Below, one piece after another: positions 29,454 to 50,176 of a DNA stretch of 64,000 bases. A program made the position numbers and the translations under genes. Positions within the stretch are counted from its first letter, which is position 1, and each line of letters opens with the position of its first letter. Under the pieces are notes generated by a model, which worked only from the letters and a program-made list of their open reading frames with translations, was not told the origin of the DNA and did no database searches. The DNA is from Pseudovirgaria hyperparasitica (Eukaryota): NCBI GenBank assembly GCA_010093815.1, contig ML996569.1; one strand, written 5' to 3'.

Positions 29454-32400
29454 CACCTACCTCAAAGAAAACATTTATACCTCTCACACCTCCCACCCAC
29501 TCCCACCGACCAGCAACGGAACTCCCCGACAATAAATACGAAATAACTCTGAAACAAGGTACGGCCGAAGTGAGTCCTCATCTCCTTATCCATCACGAAC
29601 ACAACAAACAAACAACAACAACATCAAACACCTTCCAGCAAGGCCAATAGGTTCGCAGCGAATTTTGTCTCTCCCTCGCTTTTTTCCTGGGTACCGAAAG
29701 CGCCCGGACCGGACGTGGATCAAATGGAGATAGATGGGAGGGGGGAGCGGGCGCAGCGGGCTTGTCCTTCCTTTTCCCCCCGGCCCCTTACCCTTGTCCT
29801 TACCTCCCTTCACCCCCCCTTCTGACAGGCCTAAATCCGCCGCCGGACCACCCCCCTGTCCTCACCCGTGTCACGTGCGGCCCCACCTCGGTCAAACCAC
29901 TCACTCGTTTCGGCCGTTCTTGTTTTGCCATCCATCTCTCTCCATTCCATTCAAGACCTGACTGACCTCAACAAAAACCCCCCACTCGGATACCCGCTCG
30001 CCCAATCCCATGCCATGCCATGCCAGCGCACTCTTTCTCTTCTGTCTGTCTGTCTAGTTCGTGTGCCTTGGTCTCCCCCTCCCCCTCCCCCCCATCTTCA
30101 TGATGATCCAAAAGAATTAAAAATCACACGCATTTCCGTCATGCACGGCGGCTAGATGCAGGTTGGAAACATGGCCAATCATGGGGCTTGCTTGGGGGGG
30201 GGAGACGATCTTCTACAGTATCTGGGCAGCGGGTAAGAGGCATAAGCATCTCTCTTGCGGATGGGATGCACGTCGACGCAGGAACGTCCCCGGGCCTGGG
30301 GGGGGTAAGCGTCGTGGTCGTTGTCGTTGTCGATGTGGTGGATTTGTGGTAGACTGGGACAAGTAATATCGAAACCCGTATATTCCCATCCCATCCCATC
30401 CCATCCCATCACCTTCCCCGTAATCTCTCAAGCGGTTCATGTTTCGACGATGATGATAATGTAGTCCACTGGAGCTAGATGGGGAAGTATGAAAAAAAAA
30501 TACCGGGTTCAAAGAGTCCGGTAAAGAAAAGGAAAAAAATAATTAGAAACCTCGATGTTCGGAAATAGGCATCGCATCGCATCCCATCGCATCGTGCCTT
30601 TCTTTTTTTTTTCCCTCCGACTGACTGACTGACTAAGAACAACGGGCTGGCTCTGGCTTAGGCTTAGGCTGGCCAGCTAGCTAGCTGGCCCTATCCGCCC
30701 GCCTAACTAGCTTGATTCGAGAACTTTGCACGCGCGCGCCCAGAAGACGATTGGCACATGCTGCGTTCCCTCTCCCTCCGTATGTGCGTATGTGATGGGT
30801 GATGGGTGACGGGTGACGGGTGACGACGGGTGACGGAATCACAGGGCAGCTGATAATTAGCGGCGGCTGCCATGGGGCTGCCGGCGAAGTAAGGGGCATT
30901 TATTTCAGTCTAGAGAGAGCAGAGCCAGCCTCGTGCAAGTTTATCACGGGGGGGTTCCGGAAAGCGTGACCTTGGTGGTAGAGTGGTAGATTGGTTATAT
31001 CGGCCAGCTCATAGGCAGGCAGTCAGCGAGCTATGAGGATAGACGACGACTGGACCGCTCTGGACGCGTTCCTTACGGCTACGACTAATTACTCCTACGA
31101 CTCCTACGAATAATTGTCCACGCGAGCAAAACCACTGGTTGGTTGGCTGATTGATTTGATATACTCCGGTATCCGGGACTCTCAGGGGTCAGTCAGTCAC
31201 GACCACGACCACGACGACGAAGCGAAGCGCGCCATGCCCCAGTATGTAATACGTACATAGCAGGTAGGTAGACAGACAGTAAGCATTATATCCGTATACA
31301 ATCTAGCAAAAAGAGCTCTCTTCGTCCGTGAATGTGTACGTGTAACGAGCAAACCCCCCCCGAGATCAACAGGGGGTGGGTGTTTTTTTGGTTGTTTCCA
31401 TCGGGAATTTGATGGTATGGCGACGATATATCCGTAGCTCTGTCTGTGTCATCTCTGGCGTCTCTGGCATTTGTGGCATTTGTGGCAAGGCAGGACGAGT
31501 CATGTCACGGGAGTAGGAAGGAAGGGAAGGAAGGAAGGAAAAGAAGGCAGAAAAAGTCCGGGTGGACGGACGGACTGACGGACCGGACGGACGGGGGTTC
31601 GTTTAGCTATGGATGGACAACAGGATGATCGCAAAACCGGAGTTTTTTCGAGGGATGGATTCGATTATGCAGGAGGTCACGGAGAGTGAGCGATGAGAGT
31701 CTGAATAATGTACGGAAGATTTGGAAATGAGCAAGGAGAGACAGCAAGGGAAAGGAATAAGGCTGAGAGGAGGTGGTGTGTGCGCAGTGATGGTGGTGGC
31801 AACAAAAGCGCGTAGTAAGTATGCAGGTAGGTAGTAGGTAGACTTGTGGCTCGGGACGTTCTGTATCTGCATATCATCATCATCATCATCATCATCATAT
31901 CGTCGCGTCGCCTCAGCCACCAGATTGTTCCGCGGGCGTATGTGCGTGTGAATGGGGGTGGGTGTGTGTAGGAGTGTGTGTATGAGTGTGTGTGTGTATG
32001 AGTGTGTGTATGTATGAGTGTGTGTGCACAAGTGTGTTCGACAGAGGGCGGTCCCGTGGAATGAATGGATGGTGATTGATGGCGAGCTCGAGCAGGATGG
32101 ATGATAGTGATGGTGATGGTGATGGATGGTGATGACAATGTCAGGATGTGTATACCATCACGACAGTCTACTCTCTGCCCCCCAAAACCAAACCAAACCA
32201 AACACACGATCCGATCCATAAGTTCGAGTTCGAGTGGATGAGACAGAATTCAAGGAAAGCAGTAGACTCCTCCACCTCCCCCCAGACCTTAAGCGCCCCC
32301 ATCCCCCATCACCCATCCCCCATCACCAACACCCCCAAGTGACTCCATCCAAAAGCGGTTTAGCAACGGCCAGCGCATCACCAGTCCTCACCGCAAGACT

Positions 32401-32913
32401 GCGCAAGCACCTATCACGATCACGCTACGCTCCTGGAATGGTTTCGCACACGACGCGACGACGGCCATTGCTTTGTGTAGTTTTGGGTGGGTAGGTAGGT
32501 AGGTAGGTAGGTAGGCAGGTAGGTAAGTAGTTGCACAAAATCGTTGGTATCGTTCATCAATCATAATACCGTCTTGCATGCAGACTGACTGACTGACTGA
32601 CCCAGCGCGCGCCGTTGACAGTGCCAGGTGCTGGCTGGCTGGTATGTGCTAGCTAATTAGTACTGGAGATCACACACCCTGCGCCAATTCGCATGCTGTC
32701 TGTCCGCCGTCCACGTAGCACCCACCAGGGCCGCCGCCCAGCCAAGGAATATTTCTCCGTTGCCTGCCTGTCGTCGGCCTTGCCTTGTCTTGCGGGCGGC
32801 AGGCACCCCTGGTTCGTGCGATTCGATTCATCACGGGTTGTGCCTATATAGGATGTTGCGTGCTACATGGACGTCTCTGTACAGTTGGATGGATGGATGG
32901 ATGGGTGGATGGA

Positions 32914-32945
<32 letters not shown>

Positions 32946-35900
32946 GAAAGAAGCAATGTCCCTGAGCATCAACAGCACCGCTCCCAAACCCAGCCAGCCA
33001 GACCTCATCCACGCAGCACGAGCAGAACACGACGGTTGTTCAGCAATAATGCTCCCTCCCTACTCGGAAATTAATCACAAAGTCACCGTCTTGTCTTCCT
33101 TCCCTTGCTCTCTCTCTCTCACTCTCACAAAAGAGAGAAAATCCGAGCGAGTGGTTCCCTACAACCTCCCAACCTCGCTCTACACAACAACAACAACAAA
33201 CCCACGGACGATAATTACGGACCGGGAAAAGCACCGAGATCGCGTCTCTTTCTTTCGTTCTTTCTTTCGTTCCTTCCTTACTCTGCTTGGTGCTTGGAGC
33301 TTGGAGCCCCCCTCCCCCTCGCGTACGCTAGACTAACGTTGGAACGTCCGACGAGGGTGTAGTTGTGTTATGTTGTGTTGTGTTATACAAATATCGTGGA
33401 GACGGGTAGTATTCTCTGCCTCCTTCTGCTTTATTTCAAGGAGAGATGGAGATGGATGGATATGATGGCTGGGCGTGCGTGTGTGTGTCGCTTCGTGTAA
33501 TTAAATTAGTCTTTTGAGGCGTGCGTATCTATTATCTGTCTAGCTATCTGCTTAGCTATCTGTTTCGATCTAGCTATCTATTATCTATCCGTCAATCTAT
33601 CCGGTCTAGCTGTTCTATCCAATTCTAATAGCCTTCCGGGGGGGGAGGGGAGGGGAGGGGCCAAAACAAGAAAGTCCGTTCCGTAGTGCGGGCTTGGCGG
33701 TCTGGTGTTTCTTTTTTTTTGCTTCTTTTTCGTCTTCGTTGTTGTTGTTAAGCGATTTAGCGAATAAGCGAAGAGGCGAGTGATGTTGAACAGTTGATAG
33801 TCAGTTAGTTAGTTGTGTAGTTGGTGATTCAGCTAGTCCGTCAAAACCGCGTGTAGCATGCACGCAAGCAAGCATATACATATATACAGACACACATGCA
33901 TGCGTTGCAAATGAATGGATGGATGGATGGAGAAGACGGCACGACGGGCAGGTTTGAGATGATCCCTGCATGTCAAAGTTGATGCAGCCGATGGTGAGTG
34001 TCTATCAATATCAGGCGCACAAGACCGTCAAGAAGATGATGCACAAAACTCCCGTCCATCTGCACGTCTTTCTAAGGCCCGCCGTTGAATTGCAAAAAGA
34101 AAACGAAAAAGAAAAAGAAAGAAAAGACGTTTATGGTCTGGGATGGCATGGCATGGCATGGCATGGCATGGCGTGCAGGCAGTAAGCAGTGGCAGGCAGT
34201 AGGGAGGAATTAGTACGTAGCAGAAGTACCTAGCAGTAGTGGGTAATTAGTGGAGGGTAGGGTAGAGTACAGTACGGGTAAGGGTAGAGAGGGTCAGGGC
34301 AGGGTAGCGAGCGGTAGGGAGGGCCGTTGGCGTGAAAGAGCAAGTACAGCAAGAATTAAGCTGGCTGGCTGGCTGGCAAGTAAGCAGGTAAGCAGGTAAG
34401 CAAGCAAGCACATCGCACATCGCATCTCGCGCCGTCCCGCAACACGCAGCCAGCCAGCCATGACGGTCGTGCATATTGTTGTACTAGAGGCTGAACGAGA
34501 GTGTGAGAGAGTAAGAGAGCAGGGTCTGCAGAGGGTTTGTTGGTGTTATTCTTGATGTTGATATTATTATCATTAGTATTGATATTATTGTATCATCACC
34601 ACCGACAGTCCAGACTGACTCTGGATGGAAATACGAAAAAGCGAGGGTGTGGTCGTATAGCTATTAGCTAGCCAGCCAGCTAATATACAGGTACAGGTAC
34701 AGGCCAAGCAGCAGCAGCAGCTTCGTTATTAATCTACTAAGCTGCCGAAAAGCGCCATGGAGGGGCGTGTGCTTGCAAGCTGCTATTATTCGCGCGCGCT
34801 GCATTCTCCCTCTCGTTCCTCGTCTTCTACTTATATAGTAACCCTGTCCTGGATTGAGTATATCGTCCATCGTCTAGCAATTAGTCTTAGATGGAGCTTC
34901 TAGTAGATGCGTAGAATGTGTCAAAAGTGCATACATAATCTGTTAAACAAGGAAAAAGGCCGGCGAAGACGAGACGATGCAGCGTGGAACTGTAGATACA
35001 ATACAGGCCAAGACAGGCAGCAGATGGCGGTGCAGCGGGTCCACAATTTGGATCGCTGGCCCAAGTGGAGTGTGTGATAGTGGAGTGGTGTGGAGTTGTG
35101 TGGAGTGGGATGGGAGGGATGGATGGATGGAAGAATGAAGTGGAGAGAGGTTGACAGCAGCGAGATTAATTGTTATTCACGCAGGCAGGTGGGAGGCAAA
35201 AGAGGTGTTTGTGAGGTGCTGTTGCTGTTGTTGTTGTTGTTGTTGTATGTAGTATGTAACCAGATATCTGGGTATAGTATCAGGTGTAGAGTGAGTTGTG
35301 CAGGTGGTTAGCATGTAGAAGAGAGAGTGTTTGCAGACTGTATGTATAATAGTTGTGTTCGAGGGTCGAGGGTCGCGGGACGGAGTGGCAGTTGTAATGA
35401 GTGGCGGTGGAGGCAGGCCCGGTATGTGCGCTGCCGTCCCCCCCGGTAATTAGCAGTCCGGCCTGGCACTCGGGGGGATTTTGGGGGGATTTTGGGGGGG
35501 CTTTATGAGAGAGAGGGGTGGTCGCTTTGGCCTGCCCTGCCGCCCTGCCCTGCCCTGCCCTGCCCTGCCCAGTCCCGCGCCATCATGCCCCCCCATATCA
35601 CCCACTAAATTGCCGCCCTACCAGCCAGTCTAGCCAGCTAATTCTCCCTCTCTCCCTCCCTCTCTCTATTATCTCACACACACACACCCTCCCTCGCACT
35701 CATTCTCTCTCTCCCTTGATATTATTAACCCACCCCTGCCGTTTGGTACGTGCGTTGTGTGTCTGTGTGTGTGTCTGCGTGTGGGTGTGTGCGAGTGTGC
35801 GTCTGTGTGTATGGATGTGGGTGTGTGTGATCCCGCTGTCCCGTGCTCCCGCCCCTGCCCTGGCTGCTGCTGCTGCTGAATGTTCTCTTTTCTATTTCTT

Positions 35901-36757
35901 GTTCCCCCCCTCCCCCGGTATGCTTTCGGCGGGCTTGTTGTTCTTCTACGTCTGTGTGTTGTATCTGGTCTGTGTGTGTGTGTATGAGTGCGAGAGAGCG
36001 AGTGAGTGTGTGTTTGTCCGTCGCGCGCGTGGTGTGGATCCTCGACTCCATCCATTCCATCCATCCATGCTCGTCTGTTTTCCGTGCCGTCTTTTTCGTT
36101 TCTGCTTCTTCTGCTTCTGCTGCTGCTTCGGTGGTCTGCTCTGGCTCTGGCTCTGGCTCTGGCTCTGATCCGGTCTCGGTCAATCATCCGTCTCCCGTCC
36201 TGCAGCTTTCTGCAATGCACATGCAGCTCCCAAGCCCAAAGATCAGATTTGATGCGGTTTTGCTTGCGTGCAGGCTGCGGAAAGTATACATATGCGCCAT
36301 CGAGGCCCGCCGCTCCCAGATCTCACTACTCATCCTGCAATCCACCCGTTGTCTCACTGACACACACACACACGCACACACATACACACGTCCAACATAA
36401 TCATCATCAGCATCGTCATCATCATCTCTTGCCATCCATCCTCACTCTCCTCAATCTAGCCTTGAGAGCTCGTTTGATCTATTGTACTCTACACACACAC
36501 AACAGCCGACTGGTCTTCTTGTTGCTTGCAGCTTGTCCCCGCCAACGCTCTTCGCCTGACGAACCCTTCTAACCCGTCCATCCTATCCAATCCAATCCTC
36601 GACTATCAATTGTCTATTCGTCTTCATTATTAATAACTCCAACTACTACTACCACTACTATTACTCCTACCACCACCACCACCACCACGCACACGCTTGC
36701 CACGGATCTACCCACGAGTCCGTCCGCTGAACTGTCCTCCCGCTACACTACTACAAG

Positions 36758-37500
36758 GTTAGCCACACTCCCCGGAACAACAGACGGACACACAGACACA
36801 CTTTTGCTCTTCCTTACACCTCTTCTCTAACCCCCTCCCCCCCCCCCCCCCCCTCTCCCCTTCGTCTCTCATCCCCAGCCTTTTACTTTTCCCTGGCCTT
36901 CTCAGCCAATCCAGCATCACCACCCAATCCATCCATTATACACACAGACACTCTGTCCATCCATCCACACGCACGCACACACACACACACCACACACTAC
37001 ACACTACACACTACACACTACACTGCATTCGTCTGTATTGTCTCTCCCATACACACACACACACACAACTGCCATCACACATAACCACCACCACCACCAC
37101 CATCACCATCTCCTCCACCCTCCCTCTCTCCTCGGCGCTCCGACCTCAATTGTTCCCGCCTCCGCCTGTCGTTAGCTGTGGCCTGGCTTCGTTCGCGCCG
37201 CGCTAGTAAAAAGTCACAATCCCAACCTCCTCCTCCGCTTGTAAACCTCCTACTTCCGCCGCCCATTCCCCACTCACTGTCCTGTGCGAGACAAGACCCT
37301 CTTCCATTTTTCACCTTGCCCTCTTCCTGTCCTGTCCTGCTCTCCACACCCGTCCGACCACCTCTCTTCCTCACTCCCTCCCCTTCAAAGGCTCGTGAGA
37401 GGCGTGTCTTTGTGTGCTGTCACGACACACTCACTCTCCTGGTGCGCTGTTCGCTCTATTTCTCCTTACCAGCATTCTTTGCTAACCTCCATCTGCACAG
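36758..37500 (+). other. Putative intron in the stuA 5' leader
   Basis: Strong branch point GCTAAC 37481 with acceptor CACAG ending 37500; candidate donors AAG|GTTAGC 36758 or TG|GTGCGC 37442. Confidence 0.45.
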
Positions 37501-37669
37501 CCGGCGCCTCGCTTTTTAGTGCGCATCCATATAGCTGCCGCCCGCACGCACGAAGCTCTGCCACTTCACCACCCAGCTCCACCCCCATCCATCCATACAT
37601 ACATACCTGGTGCATATACCCACCTCCGACTACGAACACACACAAGCATTGCTCCCATCCCTCCTCCGG

Positions 37670-37693
37670 ATGTCGCGAGCTTGCTTCTCATAA
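37670..37693 (+). promoter_or_regulatory. Candidate upstream micro-ORF (MSRACFS*) in the stuA leader
   Basis: ATG TCG CGA GCT TGC TTC TCA TAA; the only + strand ATG found between 36295 and 38750. Confidence 0.5.
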
Positions 37694-38750
37694 CAATACC
37701 TCAGTCGTTTGGCTTGCCCATTGCCATTGTCTTCGTATTGTCAGCTTGCGCGCCATTGCTCGCCCTTCACAAAACCGTTTCGACCTACCTCTTTTAACGA
37801 CCGCAACGAAGTAACGACGTCAAGTTTTACTCTTCTGTTCAGCATTGCAGCGTTTCACTTCTCCGGACTTTGCCCCCAGAAACATCCATTACCATCTCCC
37901 CGACCGACACCACGTCCAATCAATACTCGCCTTGATTGCCCTCCGTATCACACCACTTCCTTCGTCCTACAGCGCCGGTCACCTCGTCCCTACCTCGATC
38001 ACAACCACACTAGCCACCTTTTTTCGGCTTCTGTCACCCCTTGACCTGGCCCTCGATTCAATCACCGAAAAACACACAACGCTTCGCTTAGCCACCGTGT
38101 GTTTGCCCACGTGTGCTCAGGTCTTGCCCGCTTTCTTGCCCCAACTCTCACGAGGGCCGACTTGTTGTCAAAAGGCAAACACGTCCCATTCAACCTCGAC
38201 TCTGCCACGCTTGCGACCGGCCACTGCCGTCCGTCCGTCCGTCGACTCGATCCTCAGAACCGAGGAACTGCGTAGACTATAATCGTGCGGGTTGAGACTT
38301 GGTTCCAGTCTTTCAACCCTCAATACCGAAAAGCTGGCTCTCCCGTCGATTTCGCAGGTTCAGTCCCGAGGCGCCGCCGATCCGTGGAGCAGTCCCCTCT
38401 ACCCATCTCACCACCAGTCTACTGGCTACTCCGACAGACTGCCTCAGATTCAAGCTCCGGCAAGCACGCCGTCCACCTCGTCATCTCCAAGAGGTGGCTC
38501 GTTTAGCTCGGCTTCTGTAATCAACAGTGCCGCCTCAAACACGTCCTACGCCTCGTCTGTCCACGGCGCGCATCACGACTACAAAACGCCCTCGCCAGAG
38601 CAGCCGTCCTTGCCGCTGAAACGCGAAGGATACTCGCACTCTGCGCACTTGTCCTACGACCAGCCACCAAACGGCCAGAGTTACGCCTATAGCCAGGAGC
38701 CTTATAGCAGCAACAACAACAACAATAACAACCACAACCACAACCACAGT

Positions 38751-40811
38751 ATGACCACCATGCAGCAATATGGAGACGTGCATCAGCCTCATTCTTCTTC
38801 TCTAGCTCACGCCCCTCCCAACGGAGCGCAGTCCTCGATGAGCCACTATCCCTCCCAGTATCAGCAGCCTCCGATACTGCAACATGGCCAGCCCAGCTAC
38901 GGCTCGCAGAGCCAGTACGGTCATGCCTACAGCAACGGCGTACCGTCCGGCTACCAAGTGCAATCGCACATGAACCCTTCGGTTGCCCCACTGCCTGGTA
39001 TGCTTAAATTTTTTTGGTTTTACAATGTATTTGTGGTACGCTAACGGCATGCAGCAATGTCAACCTCCGGGCCCGGCTCTACGCTTCCCGCGTCCCAATA
39101 CAACGGAAGCCATACCTTTGACCAAACCGGCCAGGTTGCCCCACCCGGCATGAAGCCTCGAGTGACTGCAACTCTCTGGGAAGACGAAGGCACACTCTGC
39201 TTCCAAGTCGAAGCCAAGGGCATCTGTGTTGCTCGACGCGAAGGTACGATGACTTTTGTTTGAACCTTGACGCGTGCAACAAGACTCACAAGTCCAGATA
39301 ATCACATGATTAACGGCACGAAGCTGCTGAATGTCGCCGGCATGACACGTGGTCGACGTGACGGCATTCTGAAGAGCGAAAAAGTGAGACATGTGGTCAA
39401 GATTGGACCCATGCATCTCAAGGGTGTCTGGTAAGAAGGCGACTTCCGCGTCGAGTCGTCGGCTGGTCACTAATCTTGTCTGCCCAGGATCCCTTATGAG
39501 CGAGCATTGGAATTCGCGAACAAGGAGAAGATTACTGAATCTCTATACCCTCTGTTTGTCCACGACATTGGCAGTTTGCTGTATCACCCGTCGAATCAGA
39601 ACGGCCGCACTTCCGTTAGTGCCACCATGACGGCGGTTGAGCAGAGCAGAAGACGTCCCGACCAGCGCTACATTGGTGCGCCGCAAACTTCCCAGTCGCC
39701 TTCGCTACATCACCACCACTCCATGAGCAGCTCCATTCCTTCGCACATGCCACAGCCAAACTCTATCGCTCCTCATCCCAACGCGGCCAGACCAGGCCTT
39801 GATCGTGCTCACACCTTCCCCACTCCTCCGGCCAGCGCCTCGAGCATCATGGCCATGGGCAGCCAGGGCAACTCCTACGAGTGGAACAGTCCCTCCGTAT
39901 CGAACATGCAGAACGGTCAGCCACTATCAATAGATACGGGAATCAGCAACACTCGCTCTGTCCCGACAACACCAGCCTCCACTCCTCCAGGCGCAATGCA
40001 GAACATGGCGGCATACAGCACCACGCAAGGCTATGACAGCTCCAGACAGCTGTACTCTGCTCCTCCTGCCCAGCAAGGACAGTACAGCGCGGGCCCGCCG
40101 CCGGTGGATCGCTACAGCCAACCGATGCAGGGTGGCGTCTATCCCAAGACCGAAATGGCACCACCCTCCCGAACAGCCACGGAACAGGACCACCATGCTG
40201 AAACGAAGCCTTCGGAAGCTCTGTTGAACCAAGCATCATCAGGACATGATGACGAGGCCGAGCATGAGAGTGAATACACACACACCAGTGCTCCTTACAA
40301 CTCCAGCAGGAACTACAGCTACGCGGCCACGAATGGCGTGCACGGCGAGACGGCTCACCTCTCGCCGGATATGACTGGCTCCCCACACCAAAACGGCTCT
40401 GGGAGGGCGACTCCTCGAACGACCACGACTGGCACTGCATGGAATCCAGCATACACTGCACAGCGAGCACAGCCCGCCGCTACCAGTCTGATGAATGTCA
40501 TGAGTAACGACAGCCGACACGCCCCTAACGGTGGCAGTGACGGTTACACAGCCCCGCCCATCCACAGTGGCTACCCGAGCCAGTATCCATCTGCCAACAC
40601 CGTCCCGTCTGCGAAGCGGGGACGCGATGACGAAGACGAGCAAGACTACGCACGTCATCGGGACGGCGGTGCTGACGACCTTGACGGCCTGAAACGGCGC
40701 AAGACCATGCGCGAAGACAGCGTTGGCGGTGGAGCGGTTGGCAGTCCCTTTAGCGGGAATGGCAGCATTCAACGCAGTCAGCAGCCCACGGTCCAGCAGC
40801 GGAGGAGGTAA
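38751..40811 (+). CDS. stuA: APSES-domain transcription factor StuA (Asm-1/Efg1 family), from first in-frame ATG; frame is open from 38283
   Basis: '[102 protein letters not shown]'; introns 38998..39054, 39244..39297, 39431..39487; C-terminal KRGRDDED and LKRRKT. Confidence 0.97.
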
Positions 40812-41931
40812 GGCACCTGCTTGAGTGCCCTGGGTTTAGGTCACCAGTCCACATATATTATGAGCCGCACGACGACATAGACACGACCGAGCAGTGCCTG
40901 TCTGCCTGCCTGCCTAATCCGCTGCCATTAATTTTTTTTTTTTTACACAACAATCCTGCAGCCTGTCCATACTTGCCTCTCTCCTGCGACTGCGAACACG
41001 ACGACCGTACACTCGGCCGCCGCCCTCACCGCACCAACACTCTCTACCGATTTCTTTACATGTTCTCATCGAAATTTCCCGGCATTAACGACTTACGACC
41101 TTAAATTCGCGCTCCCAGACTCCATCTATTACAACTACCATTCACGACGTGGATCCCCCCATCACAGGTTTCCAGCACACCATAATGATCATGGTGTATG
41201 TGGCAGCGATTCAATACACAGCGTGACGACTTGTACTTTTTTCCAGCGCTTTCGCGACAGACGGCCTCGCCACATTAAAAACGAAGTCGAGCCAGACAAA
41301 GCAAACTTTACGGCTACGACGGATTTTAACAATACTTTTTTTTCTCTCTCTCTCTCCTCTCTCCTCTTGTTCAAATTCATTCAGGAGGAGCAACACGGCG
41401 AATACCGGGGAGGATACGGGGAGGGGGCTCGCATACAGGCTACACTCTGGTTCGATTGTCTTTTTCCCTTTTCCTCCCGAACGCCAGGACACACACACAC
41501 ACACAATATATTGGGGTTTTGGTCTTTTTGGAATATGAAGAATTTTTTTTATGAAAGCTAGCTAGCGAGCGAGCGAGCGGACATGATGGTGAAATTCTCA
41601 CGTACCGGCCCGCCTCGTCCTGGGAACAGACGGCGGCGGCGGCGGCGGCCGGGGCATCACGGCGGACATGAAAACAGACAGACCGATCGATGGCAGTTAT
41701 GATGGAGCTTATGATAACGAGACCAATCAATCCAAAAGCGACGTGTGCTTGCTCTTCCACGGCCTGTGTGTTGGCTTGATATTTGATGTGATGTGACGTG
41801 ACATGGACTTGATGTTGACTGTGACAGGACAGAGCAATGACAAGACAAGACATGCAACTCACGTCTAGTAATCTCTAGCATCCCCTTTTTGATTTCCCGA
41901 TATTGATAGGATTACTAGATTTACGGCTGGA

Positions 41932-42003
41932 GGATGGATGGATGGATGGATGGATGGATGGATGGATGGATGGATGGATGGATGGATGGATGGATGGATG
42001 GAT
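41932..42003. repeat. (GGAT)n tetranucleotide microsatellite
   Basis: Perfect GGAT run of ~18 units. Confidence 0.95.
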
Positions 42004-42389
42004 CTATATATAGTAGTACTAGGGAGTAAAGATGGGGTGAGAGGTAAGATACTAAGTATAGTTTAAAGTAGAGATAGAGATAGAGATAGAGATAGAGAAG
42101 AAAGAAGATGGAGAGGAAGGTCCTTAGGAGGAGGAGAAAGTAGTACTTCTTATATTCATATATATATATATATATATAGATACTACTCTATACTACGTAC
42201 TATATACTAAGACTACTCTATACTACTTTACTACTTTACGCCTCTTAGACCTACTCTAGTCTAGTCTAGTCTAGGTAGGTAGATAGAGAGAGAGAGGGAG
42301 GTAGAGAGGGAGGTAAATAGTGACAAGGGGGTTATGTTAAATCTATTTCTTTGTTCGTTTTTTTGGTTCGCTGTGTTTTTTTATGTATT

Positions 42390-42391
<2 letters not shown>

Positions 42392-42442
<51 letters not shown>
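42392..42442. repeat. (TG)n dinucleotide microsatellite
   Basis: Perfect TG run of ~25 units. Confidence 0.95.
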
Positions 42443-42444
<2 letters not shown>

Positions 42445-42912
42445 ACCGCGTGTGTTTATTCGCTTCTTCGTTTGTATATATCCATTAAATAGATAGTAAG
42501 ATAAGAAGTAAGTAATACAGCGTGCGTACTAGGAGTAGAAAGTCTGTCTCGACGTATAAGATACGGGCTATGGGTGGTAAGATGGATAGGCTAAAGGGTT
42601 CTATAAACGAAATTGAGTCTATATAGATAAAGGTCTATGAATGAAGGGCTATGTCTACGGCGGCTATGTCGTTTTTTAAGCTAGACATGTAGATTCATAA
42701 GTCAGGGTCTATGAAGCAGGGTTGATAAAAGTAAAGTATCCATGAGTAAAAGTCCACGAATGACTCAAACCCTATATCAAGCAAAGTCTGATAATAAAGA
42801 AAGGCATAGATTCATTCCTTCGTTGTTTGCTCTTCGGCTGTTTTCGATTCCGGCTGTTTTCTGGCGCTTGCTTGGTTGCTTGATATCTGCCTGCCTGTCT
42901 GTCTATCTGTTC

Positions 42913-42972
42913 TGTTCTGGATATGCTGTTCTGGATACGCTGTTCTGGATACGCTGTTCTGGATACGCTGTT
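42913..42972. repeat. 14-bp minisatellite (TGTTCTGGATACGC) x4
   Basis: Four adjacent near-identical copies. Confidence 0.85.
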
Positions 42973-45900
42973 TAGGTTAAGCTGCAGTTCTAACTTCTAG
43001 TCTACTGCGAGGGAATGGAGCAGATGGATGCATGCATGCATATATACTTGTGTACTATATGTGTTATGTTCATATAGATTTAGCCGGAAAAAGGGGGCGT
43101 TTAGCAGGAACTTGATGGTTAATTTCAAGTGGAGGATCCGAAAGGGGACGTAGTCGTATACATATATATGCAAAGTCTCAACGGTACTCAGGAAGTTGTC
43201 TCTAGTCCTATCTTCTCGCACCATGTCTCGTAGGGGGGGCGGATACTTCTTATCCTAGGGTAGGGAGCAAGAAAAGGTTATATCACCAAGCGAGAGGGTA
43301 GTGTATATATATACACGCCATATACACACTCGACATTCAATAGCACGAGCAAGTAGGATATCTAGCATATATATTCTAAAGCATATAACGTATCTTCCCA
43401 GTCAGGAAGTGCGCGATGCATGATATACGATATACGACAACCCCCCGTCTGACTCGAAACCTGACCATGCCAAAGGACAATCATTTACGTGCTTTGCATT
43501 CCTTGCCATATAATCGCCCGCTTTTCCTATGTAGCCTTCCCATGTTCATCATCTCTCCCCGCAATCTCCCCTTATCCCGCCCTCTTCTCTCCTACGCACG
43601 ATGTGTATACATATATGTACGAATCAACATGCTACAAGCGCGAACATATTCTACATACGGGAACATATACTACATGCGAACGAACGAACGTATACATCCC
43701 ACGCATACATCATGCACGCACACACGCTCGTATCCATACATACATACACATACATACATCATGCACGCACGGCACGGCACGATACATATGTATGTGGGGA
43801 GTGCAGCGCCGGGGATGCTGTATGCCCCCCATATACCCCATATCTGTGAATGTGTCTGCATCTGGGTTCTATAAGACTGTAGACTCTGCAGACGTGTAGA
43901 CCAACCCCAGACAGACGTGTGAAGAAAAGCCCAGCCGCGACGAACGGCCGATGAGCGGGCGATACTCATGCGCACGTCGATGCCAAGATCTTGCATGTAT
44001 GCATGATTTGATAGATGGGGGTTTGAGGGGGGGTGGGTGGTGTGATCGATCAGTCAGTTAGTTAGTAGGTTCTAGGCCGCCTTGTAGAAGACGATAAAGA
44101 AGATGATGAAGATGAAGAAGGATCGGGGAAGCGGATTAGACTGGGAATGGCTGACCAACTAACGGACGGACTCATTCACGGGCTAAATCAACTGAATATT
44201 CGTGGAGACAGGTTTATCAGGTTATGGCCTCTATCGATCTATGTATCTATCTAGACATCTACACCATCGTAGCATTGCTTCGGAGGTCCCAGGTCAAGGC
44301 TGTCCGAGGAGGAGGCAACTTGGCTAGCCAGCTACCGAGCCATCGTTCCGGGCATGTCCAGCCGACGCAGAAAGCAATGATATCACATTATCCAAATCCT
44401 AGGTGCTTCACGTATAGTGCCGTATAGTATAGTATATCACAGCCCCCGATGATAGCATACAGCATGTATGAGATTACCGCCGCCCGTAGCATAGCATACC
44501 CGGAGCACACGAAGAACGCCTCGCCGCTCTGCTCCACAAATGCCCCCCATCTATATCTTATCTATATTTCGATCTCTAGAAATTGCCGCTCGGTCGGGCA
44601 ATCTATGGATGGCATCGCGGAGCATGGCATGGGCTACACGGGAACGTCTGTGCAGGTGGATGGATGGGCACGCGGACAGGCAGGCAGGCAGGCAGATACG
44701 TCGTACATGAACACCTACATACATACATTAAATCTACAACCTCACACAGCCAGCCAGCCAGCCAGCCAGCCGGACAAGACAAAAAAACAAAGCAAACACA
44801 CAGCGCAAACAAGCAGGCAGAAACGCGCTGATCCCCACCAAGCCATCTCCGTCCACCCTGCAACGCTGCGGCGCACGATACCACTAACTACACTACCACC
44901 ACACACCCACACCCACAAACCCACCCACAGACAGCACAGCACAACCCTCAACATCGCCTCCTCCGCGCCTCACCCCCGCATATCCTGCGCACCACCCACG
45001 CACCAAACAATAAGCCAGATAGACAGATAGCCAGACAGACAGCCAGACAGGCTAACTAGAACCCCAATACCACCGAGCGCGGACGCTCCGTGCCATATAG
45101 AGCCTGGGACGGGGCCACGGACGACAGGGGAGAGAGGTGTGTGCTGAGTTAGGGGAGAAGAAGGGCGGGAGAAGGAAGGAAGGAAGGAAGGAAGGAAGGA
45201 AGGAAGGAAAGAAAGGAAGAAAGAAAGGAAAAGGACCGGGCGGGGGGATATGGGAGGGAAGGGCCGAAGCGGCGCCTTTTTTTGGGGGGGTTGTTGCTGG
45301 TTGTTGTTGTTGAGTATGGGAGGTATTATTTGGTTTTGGGGGTGTGCGTGTGTGCGTGCGTGCTGGAGGTGTGATGCGAACTGGAATTGAGGTTGAGGTT
45401 GTTGTGTGTTAATTAGCCTGGCGGGCTGGCTGGCTGGCTTCTAGCGTTTCTGCTAGGGAGGCGGATTTTACTAATTAGGGTTTTACTATTACTATGAACT
45501 ATGAATCGCAGTTGACGCGCTGGCTAGAGACGGATGGTCGTGCTCGAGCCTTGTCGTTGCTCTGGTGTAGTGTGTATGCCTATTTGATATACTCTTTCAC
45601 TCTATTGAGTCCTTTCACTCCGCGCCCACGATAATCACACGTTCACAATCCAAAACTAGACAGTCCATTCATCCCCTCCATCCATCCATCTATGCACACA
45701 TGGATCTCTCTCAACAGTGAATCTACTACACACACACTTCCCATCCCATCCCATCCCATCTCAAAGCACAGCCCCCGCCCACCGGCACTCCCACACGCAC
45801 ACATACATAACGCATGCATGCATGCATATGCATCCACATGCACACACCCGCGCCCCAACTTTCACCCCACCACCATCACCACGATTTCCTACACGCCTAA

Positions 45901-47299: not shown

Positions 47300-49289
47300 C
47301 GTTAGTTCCTTCGGGGTCTTCGGTGCCTTTGCTCCTTTCGGCTGATGACGGGACTGGATTTACTTATGGTAAGTTAGTAGGTCAGTCAGTCAGTCAGTAA
47401 GTAAGTAGATAGACGCCAGCCCGTGCGTGTGTGCGTGTGTGCGTGTGTGTGCATCGTAAGGCAGACCAGACCAGACCAGACCAGACCAGACTAGAACGGA
47501 CCAACCCAAACAAGGGCATCACAAATAACCGCTTTCTCTGCCTGCCCGAACAGCAGAAGCACGCACAGAAGCACGGAAGCACGGAAGCACGGAAGAACAA
47601 GAGCAAAAAGAAGAAACGAACCGCCCGCCAGTCCCAAGTCCATGTCCATCCATAGCATGAGATAGATGACTAAACCATATCATCATCACCTCATCCCCAT
47701 CCTTGTCTTCCCTGCGTTCCCCTTCTTCCCTTGCCCCTTCCCGAACAAGAGCGAGGAGGGGGAGGCAATTTTCGTTTCGCTCTGCTCTGCTCTGCTTTAT
47801 TGCGCGCTCTGCTCGAGCAAGAAAGGGAGGGAGAAGGACCGTGGACAGGGATCCATGCTGACACATAAATTACCCGAAAGAGAAGGTACGATTAGGTTTT
47901 TACGAGGGAGGAGGATGCGAGGCGCGGGGATAGGCGAGTGCCCGTGCGGCATGGATGGACTGGATGGACTGGATTGAACGGATGGGTGTGTGCACTTGGT
48001 AGGGAAGAAGGGAGGGAGGGGGGTGTGGTGCGTCTATGCGTTGTCGTGACTCGTGTGCCGAGTGCTGGTTTAGGGGGGGGGGGGGGGGGACGCGACCGGG
48101 GCTGGGATGCAAGGGAAGGGATGGAAGGATGGGAGGAAAGGGAAGAAGTGCGCGAGGAGAAGACCGGGGAGGGATAGAACACGAGAAGAGGGGAGAGAAG
48201 ACAATTGAGGGGATTGTGAAGGTTTGCTGCTGAGCCATGTCGGTGACAGACAGTGACAGTTCCACGTGCTGTGTGATTGGCGTGCATGGACGGTCTTGCT
48301 GTGTAGCTCTGGCTATCTTCGAGGCTGAGAGGACTCCCAGCACTGCCCCCGGGTGGATGAAGACAATCTGAAGTCCTGGAGTTTTGCATTTTAACTGAAT
48401 GTACGGTTTGATTGCTCACTACGTCCCGTCCCGTACCACGGCGCCGTATCCTAAACACCAGTCGTGCTTACACCGCCAACAGTGGCAGAGTATCACCACA
48501 GTCTTGCCGTCTGTCCATCTTCTAAGCTGACTTCAGTTTGACCCCATATTCCGATGTCCTAGTCCCGGCAGACTTCCTGCACGCTATGCTGCAATCAAGC
48601 TGCGAACCACTGCCAAATCACCTTGGCGACATTCCAGATCTGTCGGTCTATCACTGCACGCCGCGAGATGGCCAAGCAGAAGGCGGTAGATCAGCCGTCG
48701 TGACTTGGCGGGTCTCTTAAGTCTGAAGTCCACACGTAGAGCTTGTCTACCATAGTCCCATCGCCAGGCACAAGACACTGTCTCCATGGTCGTATCGTGT
48801 TTCGTTACTTGGTGGTTTGCTGGTCGAGTCGACTGGGGCACCCCTCAAGCCCTTATCACGCATAGACGCAGACCTCTTGGAGGACGTGAGCTGCATGAAC
48901 TCGTCGGGGAAGTATGGGATGGACCGTTCCTCAGACTAGTCGCCTTCGCTCGTAGGGCTGTATGTATGGTCGTCCATGCGTACGGAGACATCGTGGTAGT
49001 CCAGTTGTGACTGGATATGGGTGTTCTTGATGATGTAACAAACACTACCTCAGTAGTATGCTTTGACCATGATTCTTCGATGATACCTGCTACAATGAAT
49101 GGTCAGCATTGTCGTCGTCCACCTTCCAAATCGACCATCACTTACGGGTAGAAACACAAGCCTGATGGCTAGTCAGTTGTGTTGAAATTGAGATCACCTG
49201 CACATGGTATTATAAGAGTACAGCTTTGTGACATTCTATGATCTATCTCTGTCCACCACCATCGCTACATTTACACCTTAGATGCAGCT

Positions 49290-50176
49290 CTATTTCCCAA
49301 CATTAGTGTACCGCAGGTATGGCTTGACCTCCCTGACGTCGCCAAACTTCTTCTTCGCATCTTCCGTCGACACCGGCACCGGGATTATGACATCGTCACC
49401 CACATTCCAGTCGATCGGCGTAGCTACACCCTTCTTGTCTGTGGTCTGTAGCGAGTCGATGACCCTCAAGACCTCGGCAGAGTTTCTGCCCGTCGACGCG
49501 GGGTACAGCATCGTGAGTCTGATCTTCTTGCTCGGATCGATCACGAAGACGGAGCGGATCGTCAAGGGCAATTCGTTCTTCTTGTCAATGTCCTCTTGCG
49601 CAATCATGTCGTACTTGTATGCGATAGCACGGTCGCTATCGGCAATGATGGGGAATGTCACGTTTGTCTTTGAGATTTCGTTGATATCCGAGACCCATTT
49701 TTCGTGGTTGCCCAGGTCGTCGGCACTCTGTGCGAGTGCGATTAGCTCAAAGTCCTGCGACGGGTACAACAGGTAGTCGAGTTCGTACCAAGCCAATCAT
49801 TTTGACGCCTCGCCTATCAAACTCGCCCTTCAGCTTGGAAAAAGCCCCCAGCTCTGTCGTGCAGACAGGAGTGTAGTCCTTGGGGTGGGAGAACAGAATG
49901 GCCCAGCTATTGCCAATGTATTCGTGGAAATCGATGTCGCCAATGGTCGTTTTGGCCTTGAAATTCGGGGCTACATAGCATCAGGACTTGTATATATGTC
50001 TCAATAGAGCTGCAAAACATACCTGTAGCCCCCAATCGTAGACGTGGCTGCTCCGTCGACGTTGCTAAGAAGCGACGAGTGTGGAATGCAGGGCGTGTAT
50101 GCGCCACATTCGGTCGCGCGACGGACTTCAAGTAGCCTAAAGCTCTGGGAGCTGTACGAGGAAGATATGAAGCCAT
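49290..50176 (-). CDS. prx1: Mitochondrial 1-Cys peroxiredoxin Prx1
   Basis: Arg-rich presequence [14 protein letters not shown]...; '[20 protein letters not shown]'; '[14 protein letters not shown]...YPASTGRN'; introns 49971..50022 and 49728..49788. Confidence 0.95.

Follow-up and report, generated by a model that had tools for sequence, protein, structure and literature searches.

N-terminal extensions made from near-cognate start codons are described for Neurospora crassa cpc-1 and for CPC1 of the Pezizomycotina more widely (Ivanov et al. 2017, PMC5487733). The near-cognate starts of cpc-1 gave less than 1% of the reporter activity of the main AUG in vivo (PMC5487733). The same article cites Podospora anserina IDI-4, for which a conserved CUG start was proposed. 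Neither stuA nor asm-1 is mentioned in its main text. StuA of Alternaria alternata was published as a protein of 631 amino acids (PMC10715145). The sections available of that paper and of a review covering A. nidulans (PMC3749384) present StuA/Asm-1 in its AUG-started form only, and the accessible part of PMC3596290 gives no protein size for StuA. The literature searched, which left out most subscription papers, the original A. nidulans work included, contained no description of StuA starting at a codon other than AUG.

StuA, the subject of many studies, regulates sporulation, the formation of fruiting bodies and secondary metabolism. Its gene was analyzed in a 64,000-nucleotide stretch of Pseudovirgaria hyperparasitica contig ML996569.1, referred to in full as the window. 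The region had a single match in the 35.4-Mb genome of this fungus. The stuA coding region was placed at 38334..40811 on the plus strand and is comprised of four coding exons (38334-38997, 39055-39243, 39298-39430 and 39488-40811, all plus strand) with GT-AG introns, a single terminal stop and intact APSES junctions. The main AUG (38751..38753, plus strand) has A at -3 and corresponds to the position where other StuA proteins begin with MNQ. Sizes computed from the spliced frame were 769 amino acids (82.7 kDa) from the CUG at 38334 and 630 amino acids (67.8 kDa) from the AUG. PF04383 (APSES/KilA-N) scored above the Pfam cut-off in the CUG-started ORFs of two orthologous loci, L024 and L011, in frame with the extension, and the spliced stuA frame of the window has the same APSES motifs. 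Exon 2 of the window's stuA alone gave no Pfam match, and positions 34000-43000 gave no Rfam match. Between 25000 and 52000 the ATG-started ORFs of at least 150 amino acids other than stuA resembled repeats or chance frames. The gene seems to be placed in a long gene-poor stretch there.

Upstream of the main AUG the StuA frame had been described in the initial annotation as open and free of ATG, and this was confirmed on reading the sequence. The frame is bounded by an in-frame TAA (38280..38282, plus strand) and its first ATG is at 38751. The near-cognate codons named there, TTG at 38292 and CTG at 38334 within AAG-CTG-G with A at -3 and G at +4, were present, as was the protein-like text LALPSISQVQSRG, DRLPQIQ and YKTPSPEQ. 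Over positions 36292-38751 the plus strand contained one ATG only, at 37670. A single ATG in 36295-38750 compares with 17.1 ± 3.5 expected from 500 dinucleotide shuffles.

The part of this frame from CTG 38334 to ATG 38751 is 139 codons long (38334..38750, plus strand), Ser/Pro-rich and lacking Met, and no Pfam family was found in it. Of 1083 candidates, 18 were homologous to the 139 codons at E <= 1, with 42-55% identity, and the named ones were Dothideomycetes. Similarity to the homologues started at T-x-K-L-x-L-P-S-I, with none upstream. Orthologous DNA was searched with APSES exon 2 as the anchor so as not to select for the extension. This gave 299 stretches encoding a relative, of which the best 80 were used, making 81 sequences with the window. 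Eight had too little upstream DNA, leaving 73 informative sequences, 64 with the extension and nine without. The 64 fell into 41 clusters at 93% identity; the clusters are kin and agreement among 41/41 is not 41 independent events. On a quick tree of 65 rows, with 10 loci dropped as too short, the clusters spanned Dothideomycetes, Leotiomycete-like loci and one Colletotrichum-like locus. The start codon itself was read in DNA, and Eurotiales and Onygenales were represented by proteins only.

Selection was estimated from 16 of 20 disjoint closest pairs, four being dropped as too divergent, and none of the 16 includes the window. The dN/dS of the extension was 0.16 and that of the first 70 codons after the main AUG, the annotated N-terminus, was 0.086. 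The three frames of the 150 nt upstream gave 0.81, 1.04 and 0.90, with the caveats that in the closest pairs this control also had pN below pS (0.12 vs 0.26 and 0.10 vs 0.22) and that the distant upstream alignments were near saturation. The wrong frames of the extension gave 2.0 and 2.7. Gaps came in multiples of three in 37 of 49 cases in the extension compared to 15 of 82 upstream. The extension ranged from 95 to 139 codons, with 18 different lengths, and was always in frame. Frame conservation and a dN/dS below 1 among orthologues, which the initial annotation had proposed as checks, were therefore both observed. Given the 42-55% identical homologues and the purifying selection in orthologues, the extension is more than a chance open frame. 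Because purifying selection starts at the CTG and not upstream, the 156 codons first proposed were cut to 139, which removed 17 unconserved open codons and with them the TTG. This TTG (38292..38294, plus strand) has a weaker context, with G at -3 and A at +4, lies in an unconserved region and was rejected as the main start. The original suggestion of a CUG or UUG start was accordingly retained for CUG alone.

Sites were detected with the codon at the start of conservation left free. The rule required Lys before it and Asp, Glu or Ala after it, which fixed positions -3, -2, -1 and +4, and LP[SPA][ILN] and KTPSP also entered the detection. The first conserved codon was CTG in all 64 sequences and all 41 clusters, in keeping with the expectation that the near-cognate codon would be conserved. 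As a control, the Leu of LPS, two codons on or more, was CTC in 19 clusters, CTG in 12, CTA in six, CTT in three and TTG in one, and CTG was used at 71 of the 281 other Leu codons of the extension. The context consensus was ACCGWAAAR-CTG-G, seen in the window as ACCGAAAAG-CTG-G (38325..38337, plus strand) with the proposed CUG start at 38334-38336. Among the 41 clusters A-9 and G-6 were found in 41, C-8 in 40, C-7 in 39 and A-4 in 36. A-3, A-2, a purine at -1 (G in 35, A in six) and G+4 were each found in 41, at positions which the rule had fixed. The -2 codon was always GNN and encoded Glu, Val, Asp, Gly or Ala. This constant first G with a varying residue points to a context selected as bases and not as residues. 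The nine loci missed by the rule matched neither extension profile, the first of which did detect three positive controls, so no extension was hidden by the rule, with the fixed context positions still not free. In the genome of P. hyperparasitica the context-plus-LP pattern matched exactly in stuA only, and with one mismatch it had four matches against eight for the control. Consensus folding of 20 sequences found no hairpin after the CUG (-1.1 kcal/mol, three pairs, no compensatory change), which makes the primary context the likely enhancer. The protein model P0072 (Apiospora hydei) has Met exactly at the CUG position, either by a natural CTG-to-ATG change or by annotation choice. Comparison between orthologues shows an extension that is coding, begins at CTG and has no AUG start, with the CUG, its context and the downstream AUG all conserved. 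The extension is judged real, conserved and very probably CUG-initiated, with a probability of roughly 0.87. Initiation at CUG 38334 in vivo is, on this comparative evidence, highly likely.

No in-frame ATG was found between the upstream stop and the CTG in any of the 64 sequences, in one of which (L015) the contig ended after seven codons. The upstream stop lay 3 to 176 codons before the CTG. Twenty-six loci (19 clusters) were intron-less with an unbroken frame from CTG to APSES domain and were classed as transcript-like. Among these, L005, L051 and L055 had the in-frame stop three codons upstream. Pairs of transcript-like and genomic loci (L006, L007 and L010 with L070 and L081; L031 with L039) showed two leader introns removed, at about -591 and -225, and no AUG added, and L011 compared to L080 showed no leader intron removed in the part covered. 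The claim that no upstream AUG exon could splice in was thereby upheld in the orthologues. An AUG exon joined to the extension had been set beforehand as grounds for abandoning the proposal, and was absent from all 26 transcript-like orthologues. The longer non-AUG isoform originally suggested is strongly supported by this comparison, and its start is narrowed to the CUG by the CTG in 64/64, the stop three codons upstream in three spliced transcripts and leader splicing that supplies no AUG in the pairs compared.

The strongest of the competing explanations is still improbable. In this view the AAG before the CTG, or another site nearby, is the splice acceptor for an upstream exon that carries an AUG, and the extension is ordinary AUG-started coding sequence. 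AG does directly precede the CTG in 35 of 41 clusters, but the other six have AAA, and a CTRAY branch site within 45 nt was found in two of 41 clusters only. Six database models (P0011, P0013, P0063, P0151, P0169 and P0171) turn to unrelated sequence exactly at the Leu, as a splice junction would produce, but their N-termini have no mutual similarity. The leaders of stuA do contain introns. Where these could be followed, in the same L006/L007/L010 and L031 comparisons, the last leader exon began about 225 nt upstream and included an in-frame stop 43 codons upstream, and in all 26 transcript-like loci the conserved context was contiguous with the CTG. This splicing evidence comes from orthologues, and rare splice forms drop out of assembled contigs. 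Slightly less probable again is that initiation uses a different near-cognate codon upstream, such as TTG 38292, the -1 AAG or several scattered ones, and that the CTG is an ordinary Leu. The window's frame stays open for 17 codons upstream of the CTG, many orthologues have further near-cognates there, and changes at the -3 and -1 codons (Thr and Lys) are mostly synonymous, readable as selection on protein. However, L005, L019, L034 and L067 have no near-cognate between stop and CTG. L051 and L055 have AAG only, and this AAG is AAA in six of 41 clusters. CTG in 41/41 is not expected of an ordinary Leu, and the pooled upstream sequence showed no coding selection.

Very improbable is the reading in which the extension is untranslated in the window, being a relic or a non-coding element. 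It draws on the loss of the extension in one clade and in two divergent copies, on the low complexity of the stretch and on its being known from sequence and not as protein. Against it, purifying selection is specific to one frame and the gaps keep to threes as given above. Sordariomycete annotations, starting at the internal Met, already treat three quarters of the extension as coding, and the window copy retains all four conserved blocks and an in-frame repeat. Least credible of all is a frameshift into the extension frame from an overlapping AUG-started uORF. The A-rich conserved run before the CTG could pass for a shift site, but all 58 loci tested were without ATG in either other frame between the last stop and the CTG, the +1 frame was often closed one codon upstream, and every uORF listed ends before the CTG.

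Initiation at the CUG, the preferred reading, would give a stuA mRNA with two in-frame starts. Ribosomes would scan a long AUG-poor leader and part of them would initiate at CUG 38334, aided by the conserved nine-base context, to make the 769-amino-acid StuA. The remainder would leak on through a stretch depleted of AUGs, reach the strong AUG at 38751 and produce the 630-amino-acid form. The main AUG was present in 41/41 clusters with A at -3 in 38 of them. In-frame Met was found at two of 5,073 codons in the extension compared to 151 of 3,075 after the main AUG, and at none of 3,171 codons in 26 Eurotiomycete extensions. The extension had 40 out-of-frame ATGs where codon-resampled controls had 108 ± 8.6, and each of the 40 had a pyrimidine at -3. 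These weak AUGs after the CTG occurred in 27 of 41 clusters; 14 clusters had none, nor did the window. The 19 transcript leaders contained 27 ATGs where 135 were expected. A strong main AUG and a purge of AUGs between the two starts are what leaky scanning past the CUG would select for. These patterns make production of both forms likely. By analogy with the low activity of the cpc-1 near-cognates, the long one may be rare. The predicted N-terminal peptide of the long form, probably acetylated, would be (M)ALPSISQVQSR in the window and MELPSISQVHTR in Aspergillus.

The internal Met at codon 30 occurred in two of 41 clusters. These in-frame AUGs have a weak context (L030:991 and L076:1362), and the same position is the start of many Sordariomycete models (among P0092-P0147). 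Sordariomycetes with a codon-30 AUG may make three forms of StuA.

Several elements were identified in the leader. A conserved non-coding block (37199..37250, plus strand) aligned by blastn to the leaders of L047, L016, L035 and the transcript-like L024. A leader intron is predicted at 37395..37500 (plus strand) from GTGAGA ... CTAAC ... CAG, the only donor, branch and acceptor set in 36300-38340, and is probable because orthologues have spliced leader introns. The sole ATG of the leader opens a uORF of seven codons (37670..37693, plus strand) with its stop at 37693, 664 nt before the CTG. uORFs similarly spaced from the CUG (genomic -664 to -691) were found in L007, L031, L004, L050, L008, L035, L041, L044, L052 and L057. 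The Pleosporales-like ones had 19-31 codons, with a loose YSSR-like core in those of 19-27 codons, and no sequence likeness to the window's uORF. The stuA gene of A. nidulans is said, in 1997 work by Wu and Miller, to be under translational control by a leader micro-ORF. The uORF at -664 to -691 may correspond to this micro-ORF.

A further conserved leader element (37792..37862, plus strand), exonic in orthologous transcripts, contains clustered ACGAC and ACGAA words. ACGAC was the most enriched 5-mer of the stuA leaders of 19 transcript-like loci (98 vs 21 in shuffles; antisense 24). It was also enriched in their 3' regions (56 vs 16 expected; antisense three), which correspond to 40869-41320 in the window. 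The extension had seven against eight expected and hence no enrichment. Clusters of at least three ACGA[CA] words were present in 30 of 37 leaders (antisense three of 37) and in four of the five loci of the clade without the extension. On sequence grounds the clusters look like a site for an RNA-binding protein. ACGAC was also frequent elsewhere in the window, at 30001-34000 (plus strand) and 48001-50000 (minus strand). It is doubtful, but conceivable, that the CUG acts as a switch at which start stringency, the leader uORF and the ACGAC elements set the ratio of long to short StuA. In that case the ratio and not only the amount would decide cell-type and sexual/asexual thresholds, ACCGWAAAR would enhance non-AUG initiation in fungi, and some stages might make mainly the long form.

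Four conserved blocks were found in the extension, all on the plus strand. Block 1, LPSISQVQSRG (38340..38372), contains LP[SPA][ILN] in 41/41 clusters, a pattern used in site finding, and an RG motif in 39/41. Block 2, DRLPQIQ (38433..38453), contains a second LP motif, with [DE][RK][LI][PA] in 34/41. Block 3, SSPRGGS (38481..38501), contains a Ser-Pro site, with SPR in 39/41. Block 4, KTPSPEQ (38583..38603), contains Thr-Pro and Ser-Pro sites, with KTPSP, which was part of the detection rule, in 40/41. An in-frame Asn/His repeat (38712..38747, plus strand) was unique to this gene among the aligned sequences. The extension had on average 4.5 Ser/Thr-Pro sites. From its Ser/Pro-rich make-up, short blocks and Ser/Thr-Pro sites we infer a disordered regulatory tail with binding motifs and proline-directed phosphorylation sites. 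Structure prediction for the extension with the APSES domain from 18 sequences gave an uninformative model (mean pLDDT 41) in which even the APSES domain was unfolded. An atlas search returned one cluster at 0.75, counted as no result.

The interaction motif suggested in the initial annotation is plausible but putative. Phd1, a yeast relative, recruits Tup1-Ssn6. The best guess for the putative partner of the LP motifs, at a little under even odds, is a transcriptional co-regulator. No paper linking Tup1 with LPSI was found in the literature searched. Docking of a kinase, with phosphorylation-controlled turnover or location, is somewhat less probable, and some other partner would be a minor possibility. 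LP docking by the fungal G1 cyclins Cln1/2 is described in PMC8177710. There, as in the putatively disordered tail of StuA, short Leu-Pro motifs are set apart from the Ser/Thr-Pro sites, a likeness of motif resemblance.

A profile of nine other extensions matched 127 proteins, and Leotiomycetes and Sordariomycetes were among the matches listed (the best 120 of 127). A third search added 26 Eurotiomycete proteins (Aspergillus, Penicillium, Paracoccidioides and Onygenales), 23 of which have T[EG]KL-ELPS (TEKL/TGKL-ELPS). The annotated Eurotiomycete N-termini ahead of this motif were mutually unrelated. Many Sordariomycete models (Fusarium, Trichoderma, Verticillium and Colletotrichum) begin at the internal Met near codon 30 and therefore include three quarters of the extension. 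The view that annotation had missed the extension was partly true, in that many automatic models hold the stretch behind unrelated, invented N-termini and Sordariomycete models begin at the internal Met. In the nine informative sequences without the extension, L002, L017, L029, L037 and L045 formed one clade with support of 99, beside Onygenales and Eurotiales. L038 and L059, near copies of L037 kept outside the tree, also had no trace of it. This suggests a single loss, and the extension is thus dispensable in one lineage. The remaining two, L020 and L028, are divergent stuA-like copies with a short first exon and are possibly paralogues; L020 formed a long branch and L028 was dropped from the tree. 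The seven loci of the extension-less clade (L002, L017, L029, L037, L038, L045 and L059) are a natural control for the role of the long form.

If the CUG start is real, the StuA protein now accepted in four fungal classes lacks a conserved N-terminal part. The long form and its conserved phosphorylation-type sites would then escape any tool designed from the AUG, be it an N-terminal tag, a cDNA complementation construct, a two-hybrid bait or a proteomic database. The many unrelated N-termini of StuA in databases would be explained. A single base change at the CUG would separate the two forms, making the tuning of StuA dosage and activity directly testable. The present analysis contributes the exclusion of splicing from transcript-like loci, a single loss of the extension, the Sordariomycete internal Met and the ACGAC clusters in both untranslated regions.

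Compared to the systems described, the 630-amino-acid short form of the window is close to the published length of A. alternata StuA (PMC10715145). With cpc-1 (PMC5487733) stuA shares a Pezizomycotina transcription factor as product, a long leader and an open frame under purifying selection upstream of the main AUG. In both, a near-cognate codon flanked by A at -3 and G at +4 is conserved, and automatic annotations hold the stretch without settling its start. The traits of the cpc-1 type were found at stuA as an open frame in 64/73, no in-frame AUG (0/64), a conserved CTG and purifying selection, and the stretch was present without an AUG exon in the mature mRNA as judged from 26 transcript-like orthologues. 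The narrow uORF1/uORF2 bypass system of cpc-1 and GCN4 was not found at stuA, where uORFs number 0-10 and all end before the CTG, and neither was the stable downstream hairpin of a structure-assisted non-AUG start. Unlike cpc-1, stuA has no conserved strong inhibitory uORF to bypass, its conservation starts exactly at the CUG with stops down to three codons upstream, and its context is kept to -9. It uses one invariant CUG whereas cpc-1 uses several codons (ACG, AUU and CUG). The cpc-1 start is known from in vitro, reporter and footprint evidence (PMC5487733), whereas that of StuA is proposed from comparison. IDI-4 (cited in PMC5487733) is like StuA a fungal transcription factor with a proposed, conserved CUG start. 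It is a bZIP protein described as starting at CUG and not at AUG, while stuA keeps a strong downstream AUG. The stuA gene would offer an unusually clean natural case of a non-AUG start context.
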